From NCBI GenBank assembly GCA_964016885.1, contig OZ024744.1:105648001-105712000 (forward strand): DNA of 64,000 nt. Direction: 5' to 3'. The notes beneath the pieces are model-generated. The model made no database searches, was not told the origin of the DNA, and saw only the letters and a list, made by a program, of their open reading frames with translations. This document shows positions 13,855 to 32,194 of the stretch, one piece after another. Both the position numbers and the translations under genes were made by a program. The stretch comes from Eledone cirrhosa. Taxonomy: Eukaryota. Numbering within the stretch: position 1 is the first letter of the stretch; every line of letters starts with the position of its first letter.

Positions 13855-13995
13855 GCAACTCATTTCTACAGCTGAGTAAACTGGAGCAATGTGAAATAAA
13901 GTGTCTTGCCTAAGGACACAACACATTGCCTAGTCTGGAAATCAGACTCATAATGTCACAGTTACAAGCCCAATGCTTTAACCACTAAGCCATGG
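13855..13995 (-). mobile_element. CORE-type tRNA SINE fragment
   Basis: The reverse complement contains CCTTAGGCAAGACACTTTATTTCACATTGCTCCAGTTTACTCAGCTGTAGAAATG, near-identical to 57721-57777 and resembling the MIR/CORE domain. Confidence 0.75.
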
Positions 13996-14106
13996 GCCTT
14001 CATATATATATATATATATGTAAAAGTTCTATTTAAATTGTTGGGATACAACAAGCAAATATTTTTATAACTGATATAAAGCACTCAACAAATAATTGGA
14101 GTAAAA

Positions 14107-14438
14107 ATACGATATTAACAAATGGAAACTATATTTATAAAACCATATTTATTTCATTATACATATTTCAAGGACACCAAGTTAAATTATGGTGTGCTTT
14201 CATCAGATAAAATATAATATAGAGCAGTTTTATAAATAAATATTGACATACTCTTAAAGAATGCAACCATTACGGGAGCTTCCAACAGTAATGGTTGCAT
14301 TCTTTAAGGGTATGCCAATATTTATTTATAAAACTGCTCTATATTATATTATATTTTATCTGATGAAAGCACACCATAATTTAACTTGGTGTCCTTGAAA
14401 TAAATATGGTTTTATAAATATAGTTTCCATTTGTTAAT

Positions 14439-14445
<7 letters not shown>
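14107..14445. repeat. Long inverted repeat (arms 14107-14273 and 14288-14445) of a hammerhead-bearing element; a third, diverged copy follows at 14478-14650
   Basis: The arms are reverse complements apart from a few substitutions, a 14-bp deletion and a 5-bp insertion. (TA)n lies at the right boundary and about 90 bp to the left. Confidence 0.92.
14150..14214 (-). ncRNA. Type I hammerhead ribozyme motif
   Basis: Minus strand reads TATTTTAT-CTGATGA-AAGcACACCA(loop)TGGTGTcCTT-GAAA-TAtgTA-TA^-ATGAAATA. All core boxes are present, stems I, II and III pair, and the cleavage triplet is AUA. Confidence 0.75.
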
Positions 14446-14481
<36 letters not shown>

Positions 14482-14520
14482 GATATTAATAAATGGAAAC
14501 TATATTTATAAAACCATATT

Positions 14521-14585
14521 TATTTCATTATACATATTTCAGGGATACCACATTAAATTATGGTATGCCTTCATCAGACAAAATA
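14521..14585 (-). ncRNA. Type I hammerhead ribozyme motif (diverged paralogue)
   Basis: Minus strand reads TATTTTGT-CTGATGA-AGGcATACCA(loop)TGGTATcCCT-GAAA-TAtgTA-TA^-ATGAAATA. It has two compensatory pair changes in stem II relative to 14150-14214. Confidence 0.75.
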
Positions 14586-15204
14586 CAATATATAACAGTT
14601 TTACAAATAGCTTTGACGTACCCTTTTAAAATACAACCATTACTTTTGGAGGCTGTCTGGATAGTGATTTGTTTATATAATAAGTCATAGTGTTAAGCAC
14701 AATTAGAAAAAGGCGGAGAGAAAGAAAAAGAAAAAAGACGGAGAGAGAGAAAGAAAACCTGGAGAAATATCGGAGAGAGAGAGAAATGTATGGAGAAAAG
14801 AAAGAGATAAATAAAGATAGGAGAAAATAAAAAATAAAAAAGAAAGAAAAGGAAGGAATAAGAAAAACAAAGGAAAGCAACAGAGAGATATCAAGTCATC
14901 ATACAGAAAGAAATACTATATATAGAGAGAGAGAGGGGGGGGGGGGCAGTGACAACTTTACGTCATGTCATATTAAGTTGCGTTAACAATTTATATGAAA
15001 TGAATAATAAAAATATAAATATAAGTATCAATATTCATGAATGGGACATAGATATATAATATGAGAAATTAAACATTGTTCAATAATGACCATATGTTTA
15101 GTTTAGAAACTTGAGATCAATATACCAAAATCTGAGTTCAAAATGTACCCTTGCTATAGAGATTAGTATTTTATGCAAAGACATACAAATATATATCCAG
15201 AGTT

Positions 15205-15397
15205 GACATTGCACTCAGTGCTCCTTTGGGAGCCCCTACATGGACACACTAGAAGAGGAAGACCAAGGTTAACATATGTTGATGCCCTAAGGACAGACAC
15301 TGGTCTGTTGGAGATGCAGGATATGGCAGCGATAATGAGGGACAGAGACCGCTGGAGAGAACTCGTCCATGGATCTCGGGAATTTTACCCGCCTTAG
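15205..15397 (+). mobile_element. 3' end of an RTE/RTE-X LINE ORF
   Basis: LLWEPLHGHTRRGRPRLTYVDALRTDTG...MRDRDRWR is the typical RTE-X C-terminal GRP/DRxxW motif. Confidence 0.85.
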
Positions 15398-16183
15398 ATA
15401 GAGATACATACATATAGATACGCATGTCCTGAAAATAGAAATTATGTTTACTCAAGCCAACAATATAGCCATACAAAACGTAAATGATTTCTCTTAATCA
15501 CTGCTATACATTCTTTGTGTTATAAAAATTTCACAGTATATATATACAAATATATACGATTAACAATCATGTCCTCATATATACGATTACCATTCATGTG
15601 TTTAATATTATGCATATCTGCAACATACCTCTCAACCACATAGATATATACACATACATATATACACATACATATGTATAAATAAATATTTGCGTGCGTC
15701 CTCACGCATCACTCATGTATATATACAGACACATATAGAAACACAAAAAATCTATAACACTTTCTATGCATGTTAATACACACATATGCATTTGTATAGA
15801 GATAATCCAATATCAATAAATTACTAAAGGATTATAATTTGTAAATATAACCATGGAAGGGAGTAAAAATGATTTAAAAGTTAATTTTTCCATATATATA
15901 TATATATATATGGAAAAGAGAGTTGTATATCAAATTATTCGAATAATTTTCGGTGAAAATTCGTACAATCAAGATTTATACATACACAAATATATATAGG
16001 TATTTGTACTTCTCTATCTTCAGAGGATTAAAAAAACCCCATTAAATTGAAGCAGAATATATCTGAAATTCAATTCCCACATTACTATATATATATGTAA
16101 AAGGTAAACAGAAATAACAACACAATCGGTACAGTATATGGAAAGATTATGTTAGTTTAATGCTTGAAATAGCAGGAAGAGGG

Positions 16184-32110: not shown

Positions 32111-32194
32111 ATAACTATTTCATCTGATGAACGGGCTAGACGTTTCTGTAAGGATCGTCTAGTTTCTTGAAACCTTTGGTAATGAAATAATTAT
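32111..32194 (+). ncRNA. Complete type I hammerhead ribozyme motif in the intron upstream of the SIPA1L exon
   Basis: Stem I ATAACTATTTCAT/ATGAAATAATTAT pairs 12 of 13. CTGATGA at 32124-32130. Stem II GGGCTAGACG/CGTCTAGTTT. GAAA at 32169-32172. Stem III ACC-ttt-GGT. Cleavage triplet GUA ends at 32181. Confidence 0.8.

Follow-up and report, generated by a model that had tools for sequence, protein, structure and literature searches.

Three copies of a hammerhead-like RNA motif lie close together in the genome of Eledone cirrhosa, within a stretch of 64,000 nt of contig OZ024744.1 (assembly GCA_964016885.1, forward-strand positions 105,648,001 to 105,712,000). This whole stretch is hereafter called the window, and positions are given in its coordinates. 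The question raised by the locus is whether the three motifs make up one functional unit or belong to separate mobile elements that happen to adjoin. An earlier note on this DNA had described them as a three-copy cassette, in which cleavage at two minus-strand sites would release a unit of about 370 nt, as in retrozymes. Our analysis leads to a different answer. The three motifs are very probably hammerhead-type RNA motifs located near the 3' ends of copies of Penelope-like retrotransposons (Penelope-like elements, PLEs), and, as judged from the sequence, self-cleavage of the RNA after AUA would likely require two copies to pair via a self-complementary stem III. As a repeat, the motif is of a known kind, being the usual hammerhead of a PLE family that is very abundant.

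Two Penelope-like elements abut in a (TA)n tract

Sequence reading combined with a pattern scan located CTGATGA-30 nt-GAAA at 14166-14206 (minus strand), 14360-14400 (plus strand) and 14537-14577 (minus strand). The corresponding hammerhead copies are denoted HH1 (copy 1, 14146-14218, minus strand), HH2 (copy 2, 14348-14420, plus strand, with 14 nt deleted) and HH3 (copy 3, 14517-14589, minus strand, with a full core). The family covariance model R1, which was built from a family alignment partly including HH1, scores them at 101, 71.5 and 98.6 bits, respectively. A loose pattern of the core has seven matches in the window, compared with 1.26 +/- 1.00 expected, and none of 100 shuffles reaches this number.

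The left element is a foldback of about 420 bp (14020-14442) that consists of a tail, an inverted arm and a direct arm. The tail (14020-14109, plus strand, about 90 nt), identified by tail probe matches, is one-sided, without a partner in the opposite arm. Arm A (14110-14273, minus strand), delineated by the inverted repeats and colinear with the terminal repeat of L061, one of the long elements described below, is an inverted copy of the 3'-terminal ~165 nt of a PLE and holds HH1. Arm A' (14274-14442, plus strand), delineated by repeat search and local alignment, is a direct copy of the 3'-terminal ~170 nt and holds HH2. Arm A' is the reverse complement of arm A except for the 14-nt centre GGGAGCTTCCAACA (14274-14287), which runs on colinearly into long-element sequence. 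In the repeat search, 14202-14273 and 14288-14359, with 14 nt between them, are 93% complementary, and 14140-14221 and 14345-14426 are 90% complementary, which bears out the earlier view of copy 2 as the fold-back arm of copy 1. The element is bordered on the tail side by an (AT)n microsatellite (14002-14019) and on the other side by a (TA)n tract (14443-14470) that separates it from its neighbour.

The right element starts at 14471 with a second arm-A-like copy, 90% identical to the first, that extends rightwards; the repeat search places HH1 and HH3 in direct orientation at a spacing of 371 nt, with 137 nt at 90% identity. In a blastn comparison, 14471-15850 aligns colinearly with L061, at 82.6% identity over 701 nt and 82.5% over 480 nt. 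Together with local alignment, this identifies 14471 to ~15850 (minus strand) as a copy of a long PLE from another subfamily, 5'-truncated to ~1.4 kb and comprising the terminal repeat and 3' non-coding region. No open reading frame (ORF) remains in this copy, and tblastn of P0001, the protein encoded by L061, gave no match in the window.

We conclude that there are two elements rather than one because the blastn and local alignments separate them and because 28 other fetched places hold the foldback unit by itself. The three-copy cassette therefore does not hold up as a unit: copies 1 and 2 are the arms of a foldback, and copy 3 belongs to a truncated element of another subfamily. In the alignments, the two elements meet tail-to-tail, each with its 3' end towards the other, at a single (TA)n tract.

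Two other features of the vicinity can be mentioned here. The truncated element contains a GA-rich low-complexity stretch (14700-14880) of GAGAGA and AAAGAAA units, in which a ~21-nt unit is present three times. It recurs in the interior of L061 and belongs to the 3' non-coding region of the element; it is not a separate microsatellite. On the left, a tRNA-derived SINE-like (short interspersed element-like) repeat at ~13860-13999 abuts the (AT)n tract; its match to the tRNA model (13943-13999, minus strand) is weak (19.6 bits, with a gathering score of 29), and similar sequence adjoins another family copy (L020:1981-2100).

A type I hammerhead motif with a minimal stem III

In the order of the RNA strand, the motif comprises the 5' strand of stem I (UAUUUURU), CUGAUGA, stem II, GAA, A15.1-UAUGUA-U16.1, A17 and the 3' strand of stem I, AUGAAAUA. 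In HH1, stem I has 8 bp and CUGAUGA follows it; stem II, closed by a 10-nt loop, spans 10 bp with a C.C mismatch, and beyond GAAA comes stem III, AUA/UAU around a loop of 2 nt. The minimum-free-energy fold retains stems I and II. The conserved type I core is complete in copies 1 and 3, with CUGAUGA at C3-A9, GAA at G12-A14, the A15.1/U16.1 pair and A at H17, in agreement with the earlier note. The predicted minus-strand cleavage sites are 14158|14157 (after A14158, HH1) and 14529|14528 (after A14529, HH3), 371 nt apart.

Copy 2 differs from this layout. Where copy 1 reads GAAATATGTATAATGAAATAAATATGG, copy 2 reads GAAATAAATATGG, with 14 nt gone between two GAAAT(A) repeats, as the earlier note had proposed. 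Stem III, U16.1 and the cleavage-site A were lost with these 14 nt, while the remainder of the core and stem II are kept. Hence the conserved core of copy 2 lacks both U16.1 and H17, and HH2 is predicted to be unable to cleave because of this deletion. The stem I pairs of copy 2 are also broken in its fit to R1.

Copies 1 and 2 share the stem II AAGCACACCA/TGGTGTCCTT; that of copy 3 is AGGCATACCA/TGGTATCCCT. From copy 1 to copy 3, pair 2 changes from A-U to G-C and pair 6 from C-G to U-A, whereas pair 4 is C.C in all three copies, so that the two compensatory double substitutions and the conserved mismatch reported earlier are confirmed. Eight of the 73 motif positions distinguish copy 1 from copy 3. 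Four of them form these two compensatory pairs; the remainder comprise an A-U to G.U change in stem I, two loop II changes and a single change in the 5' flank. None of the differences falls in the core and none breaks a pair.

The stem III segment between 15.1 and 16.1, AUAUGUAU, or AUAUAUAU in other subfamilies, is self-complementary and would form an 8-bp intermolecular helix III. Stem III is likely too short for a monomer, and the RNA is predicted from its sequence to self-cleave only when two copies pair. The assignment of the motif to the very short stem III, dimer type, made in the earlier note, thus appears sound, the self-complementary segment fitting the dimeric PLE class.

Stem II covaries across a very large family

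The strict pattern CTGATGA-N26-40-GAAATATRTATAATRAAA has 17,297 + 16,865 exact matches (34,162) in the 3.0-Gb genome, compared with 0 + 0 for the reversed-pattern control, and the listed matches split into many subfamilies that differ in stem II sequence. A search with the 371-nt unit gave 925 first-look candidates in the genome; the 40 that were scored are full-length matches, 85-94% identical to it, and are located on many contigs and both strands. Reads from four sequencing runs of unknown kind yielded short contigs only, with huge summed depth, as expected of a repeat.

Covariation was assessed by pair counting on two alignments. The first, A2, is a MAFFT alignment of 45 distinct family hammerheads from 63 fetched loci. 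In A2, 97.4% of pair cells are paired, compared with 38-52% when the partners are slid, and six of the nine stem II pairs show two-sided change. The number of compensatory cells is 56, against 17.5 +/- 6.1 in shuffles, and none of 500 shuffles reaches 56. Both Cs of the fourth stem II pair are conserved in at least 90% each. The second is a model-fitted alignment, which leans towards the model: a covariance model derived from A2 produced 121 hits (75 distinct) in 65 sources, with 94.9% of cells paired and 13 of 17 pairs, among them 8/9 in stem II, changing on both sides. In stem I, changes in A2 are one-sided, of the A-U/G.U type, and the model-fitted alignment includes a few two-sided changes. 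Covariation across further genome copies, which the earlier note had named as a check, is thus present: stem II clearly covaries in these sequences while the C.C mismatch is retained. The two-sided changes in 6/9 (A2) or 8/9 (model-fitted) stem II pairs also favor the earlier proposal that selection acted on the fold while the family spread.

The carrier element encodes a putative reverse transcriptase

The distance between the motif and the 3' end of the PLE is 48 nt. Longer members were reached through outward-facing motif pairs spaced 3.3-3.7 kb. Three of these, L061, L062 and L063, are homologous elements of 3.6-3.9 kb, with terminal inverted repeats of 276-296 bp that are 98.2-99.7% identical within an element and carry the hammerhead; their interiors are common to them, with, for example, 93.9% identity over 1,325 bp. 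In another member, L072, the ORF lies in sense between two hammerheads on the same strand, 3,489 nt apart, and an additional inverted copy is present upstream; in L075 and L076, the upstream hammerhead copy is inverted. The features of PLE pseudo-long terminal repeats (pLTRs) are therefore found in this family: inverted repeats in L061-L063, direct repeats in L072, 5' truncation in the copy at 14471-15850, and the one-sided tail. As the earlier note had stated of PLEs, type I hammerheads reside here in inverted terminal repeats.

The ORF of L061 encodes a protein of 564 amino acids (aa), P0001, with the motifs YRDD, CNCRNKSNC (that is, CxCX5C) and a C-terminal VVY...YVGST...R...H. An AlphaFold model of P0001 (pLDDT 77.9) has fold matches in the PDB to reverse transcriptases (RTs), with E values from 5.6e-10 to 1e-6; retron and DRT RTs give the best E values, and telomerase RTs the highest query TM-scores, 0.39-0.43. 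YRDD and the fold match of the model indicate that the ORF would carry an RT of the telomerase-related type. Among 7,999 candidates scored, P0001 has 843 relatives at E <= 1e-5, one of which is a hypothetical protein of Argonauta hians with 43% identity. Atlas neighbours of this homologue, P0003, carry RVT_1, GIY-YIG, HTH_animal and DUF8422, and PF01541 occurs in 26-50% of the members of the neighbour clusters of P0003, but P0001 has no domain-level fold match to GIY-YIG. The linked RT plus GIY-YIG ORF for which the earlier note had suggested searching was accordingly found in part: longer members elsewhere have an RT ORF with a GIY-YIG-like end, and tblastn detected none in the window.

A search of the genome with P0001 gave 100,631 first-look candidates. 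All 77 that were scored are 87-100% identical to it, 41 of these have no internal stop, and the open frames of the matches reach 816 aa. These sequences indicate that the autonomous family is very large and young. The CxCX5C linker, the (TA)n target and the hammerhead fit the Hydra clade of PLEs, a placement suggested by motifs.

A foldback mini-element with arms apparently made together

The foldback family was examined in 30 loci, which represent 29 places, the window included, since L017 and L023 are the same place on both strands; the duplicate was kept in the counts. Unit lengths range from 397 to 441 bp. An 85-nt tail probe aligns on one side only in all 30 loci, with a score of at least 71/85 in 28. 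Tracts of (TA)n flank the unit in 25/30 loci on the tail side (at least four repeats) and in 29/30 on the other side. By local alignment, each arm matches the final ~170 nt of the long elements colinearly, and the ~90-nt tail is found also at the ORF-5' end of L061, L062 and L063. The tail is always outside the inverted copy, 5' relative to the ORF, and contains the TATA-like words TATTTAAAT and TATAAAG; it may be either a leader or promoter, or an insertion by-product.

The two arms diverge by 2.0% within a locus compared with 4.2% between loci, and 59 non-consensus sites are mirrored in both arms compared with 93 seen in one arm only. Such private variants, common to the two arms of a locus, make it likely that one insertion produced both the inverted arm and its partner. 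The 14-nt deletion recurs in one arm of five of the 30 loci, three times in the non-tail arm and twice in the tail arm. We considered this deletion as a mark of one arm or of a sublineage and rejected the idea, given its presence in both arm types. By the sequence, it could have arisen either through slippage between the two GAAAT(A) repeats, which is the simpler reading, or through recurrent template jumps.

A transcript of 14021-14442 (422 nt) folds to one hairpin of ~160 bp at -221.5 kcal/mol. A further-reaching interpretation, which we advance tentatively and consider possible but doubtful, is that the foldback stands on its own as a high-copy, non-autonomous derivative of PLEs, a 'foldback retrozyme', in which each arm has an outward-facing hammerhead and both arms are remade from one ~170-nt RNA template per insertion, and that the long-stem-II C.C variant missed by Rfam marks a very large PLE expansion in the lineage. 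If so, a transcript of either strand would start with an antisense and end in a sense hammerhead.

Weighing the explanations of the locus

Several observations speak against the interpretation of the three motifs as PLE hammerheads. The Rfam hammerhead models (RF00163, clan CL00010) have no match at the gathering score in the whole window, the Rfam hammerhead families have none at E <= 10 on 13900-14800, and the family motif went undetected by these models in eight other family loci; detection by Hammerhead_1, which the earlier note had anticipated, thus failed. The 10.1-11.1 pair is A-U or G.U and not the usual G-C. The domain-swapped dimer, at -25.2 kcal/mol for HH1 and -22.0 kcal/mol for HH3, is not the predicted optimum (-27.5 and -31.7 kcal/mol, respectively); being near that optimum in the model, it is taken as compatible, not as support. 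PLE hammerheads are described as weakly active in vitro (PMC4209133, PMC6765202). With respect to covariation, the pattern with which half of the sequences were fetched already dictated the core, stem III and the 3' side of stem I; these are invariant by construction, which leaves stem II and the 5' side of stem I as the free tests. The shuffle controls overstate independence because the subfamilies are related. In 60 arms fetched by BLAST alone, substitutions in the core CUGAUGA (13/420) are not depleted relative to the rest of the arm (162/5870). For the ORF, the local Pfam copy gave no RT or GIY-YIG match for the ORFs and homologues, and a sequence profile of 22 homologues gave no match to PDB sequences, so that the GIY-YIG call rests on motifs and Atlas neighbours.

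The lack of depletion in the core implies that there was no constraint after insertion and that selection acted on the source elements, not on the inserted copies. The whole motif is mildly depleted of substitutions across the 60 arms (65/3592); substitution density in the arms was considered as a sign of selection and rejected, the substitutions being read as neutral decay following insertion.

Under the retrozyme-like alternative, the two minus-strand hammerheads would cut out a ~370-nt unit that is circularised and serves as a retrotransposition intermediate. HH1 and HH3 are indeed complete, on the same strand and 371 nt apart, and a modelled HH1/HH3 heterodimer via stem III is possible at -23.6 kcal/mol. 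Published precedents exist as well: metazoan non-LTR (long terminal repeat) retrozymes are described as 150-450-bp monomers with type I hammerheads and low GC (PMC7229834, in the sections used), and a 2026 preprint by Li et al., as far as its available portion goes, ties animal retrozymes to PLE pLTRs. The composition of the interval tells against this alternative, as it holds 58 nt of one element, the (TA)n tract, the antisense arm and 116 nt of the sense arm, without a repeated monomer, and HH1 and HH3 come from different subfamilies (90% identity). At the other fetched places, the foldback is single, with no 371-nt head-to-tail array. In the first 100 genome matches, the 26 neighbouring pairs within 5 kb, counted by eye, comprise 17 facing apart, two facing each other and seven on the same strand. 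A transcript of the foldback alone would bury HH1 in the single long hairpin described above. Because two elements abut here, the 371-nt interval is best regarded as a chance juxtaposition, the RNA of which would be a near-perfect hairpin; membership among the retrozymes fails because the defining head-to-tail tandem feature is absent, and the release of such a unit is very unlikely. Dependence of the mini-element on PLE enzymes is nevertheless plausible.

If the locus were instead a miniature inverted-repeat transposable element (MITE) or foldback DNA transposon, a palindrome of ~420 bp would have been moved by cut-and-paste with the hammerhead-like motif as a passenger without RNA function. 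The near-perfect inverted repeats of the arms, the short, non-coding sequence with TA-rich flanks, and the dispersal in hundreds of copies or more (the 925 first-look candidates) would suit such an element. The asymmetry caused by the one-sided ~90-nt tail would not, nor would the colinearity of the arms with the 3' terminus of elements coding for a protein with an RT fold, or solo 5'-truncated copies such as 14471-15850, which are typical of reverse transcription. Unlike a passenger, stem II covaries across subfamilies while keeping the C.C mismatch, and the mirroring of variants between the arms is consistent with their being made anew upon insertion. Target-site duplications are unreadable within (TA)n, but symmetric terminal inverted repeats without an RT-linked origin are not what is found here, and we consider a DNA transposon extremely unlikely. 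The same long hairpin, a ~160-bp stem at -221.5 kcal/mol, could be taken for a hairpin-RNA locus, in which a double-stranded foldback RNA is processed into small RNAs and the hammerhead is irrelevant. Rfam microRNA-precursor models do match the hairpin weakly, for example, at 52.5 bits with a gathering score of 140, but these matches, far below threshold and typical of any inverted repeat, were rejected as hairpin/TA-repeat artefacts. Such processing would not conflict with a PLE origin, and yet it leaves the hammerhead covariation across subfamilies unexplained; as an account of the locus, it is hardly credible.

We therefore retain the interpretation of the motifs as PLE 3'-end hammerheads. 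Target-primed reverse transcription directed at (TA)n would have brought in both elements, with the inverted arm of the foldback likely produced during the same insertion as its partner arm. As has been proposed for PLEs, the likely role of the hammerhead in source elements that carry direct repeats is to cut read-through or tandem transcripts down to unit length. The copies at this locus are most likely inert relics, and in a foldback transcript HH1 would be locked in the ~160-bp hairpin.

Comparison with published PLEs, hammerheads and retrozymes

Minimal and dimeric type I hammerheads of Penelope-like elements are reportedly the subject of a study by Lunse, Weinberg and Breaker in RNA Biol 14:1499. 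The following comparisons draw on parts of the papers cited. PLE hammerheads are described as type I, with a long helix II and a tiny palindromic helix III, thought to be dimeric and massively abundant in metazoan genomes (Cervera & de la Pena 2014, PMC4209133; a 2019 review, PMC6765202). The motif studied here is similarly of type I, resides in PLE terminal repeats, has a longer helix II and a tiny palindromic helix III that would be stable only between two copies, lacks a recognisable loop-loop tertiary contact, and is massively abundant in an animal genome (PMC4209133). It differs in the dimensions of its helices, with a helix II of 10-11 bp and a 7-12-nt loop compared with the published 3-8 bp, and a helix I of 8 bp compared with 4-5 bp (PMC4209133), as well as in the conserved C.C at the fourth helix II pair and the A-U or G.U at 10.1-11.1.

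The Hydra clade of C-terminal-EN+ PLEs is characterized by the CxCX5C linker, (TA)n insertion and hammerheads near the 3' end (PMC8557442). These traits are shared by the elements described here, along with a single ORF in which the RT is followed by a GIY-YIG-like end; Mollusca is among the host phyla of the clade, and the nearest named homologue is molluscan (PMC8557442). However, these elements are ~3.5-3.9 kb long, with ORFs up to ~740-816 aa, whereas the clade is 'generally <3 kb', and the hammerheads listed for the clade have a stem II of 3-7 bp with tetraloops, unlike those found here (PMC8557442). A supplement table of the same source lists hammerhead ribozymes with a 1-2-nt loop III (PMC8557442).

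The architecture reported for PLE insertions combines truncation at the 5' end with pLTRs in partial tandem, an inverted and 5'-truncated copy at the 5' end, a tail on one side only and (TA)n microsatellites as targets (Craig et al. 2021, PMC8557442). All of these features recur in the family described here. Against the 30-40 bp in the text consulted, the tail here is ~90 nt, and the extreme form, with ~165-170 nt per arm, is itself a high-copy family. PLEs also tend to land beside each other (PMC6765202, in the part used). By analogy, the 3'-to-3' meeting of the two elements at (TA)n fits both (TA)n targeting and this tendency.

Like the metazoan non-LTR retrozymes, the mini-element is short, AT-rich, non-coding and hammerhead-bearing, and would depend on PLE enzymes (de la Pena et al. 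2020, PMC7229834). The retrozymes, as described in the portion of that paper used here, are head-to-tail tandem monomers with canonical hammerheads and circular RNAs (PMC7229834), whereas the mini-element is a foldback that occurs singly. Each of its strands has a single sense hammerhead, so that cleavage at both unit ends is not possible. A literature search combining hammerhead, Penelope and octopus found no description of this family, which, given its limited coverage, is weak evidence.

Other hammerhead motifs in the genome

RF00163 (Hammerhead_1, 45 positions) matches a canonical short hammerhead elsewhere in the genome, at L040:1110-1154 (minus strand), CUGAUGAGUCC..GGACGAAAC, with 30.7 bits (gathering score 34, E 5e-4). 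The window contains a fourth, divergent hammerhead candidate at 32112-32193 (plus strand; model R1, 27.1 bits, E 0.0075), with the core and stem I of the family, a stem II of ~12 bp with a C.C mismatch, and a 3-bp stem III, ACC/GGU, with a UUU loop, so that, judging by this sequence, it could fold as a monomer. This candidate lies within a ~220-bp fragment flanked by (TA)n and (GT)n. A strict pattern for this type has 14 + 9 genome copies (control, 0 + 0), which are visibly more diverged, suggesting an older family. Because the motif in L040 is unrelated in sequence to the studied family, at least three hammerhead types appear to be present in the genome.

Implications

A motif that is striking at first sight turns out to be a standard PLE 3'-end hammerhead and should be annotated as such. 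Because the long-stem-II variant, with at least 34,000 copies, escapes the Rfam models, hammerhead counts in genomes like this one are gross underestimates. The foldback arms with their private variants offer a handle on the formation of inverted PLE copies at insertion, a step that the literature calls unresolved. The many subfamilies, for their part, constitute an unusually rich natural covariation set for helix II, conserved C.C mismatch included.

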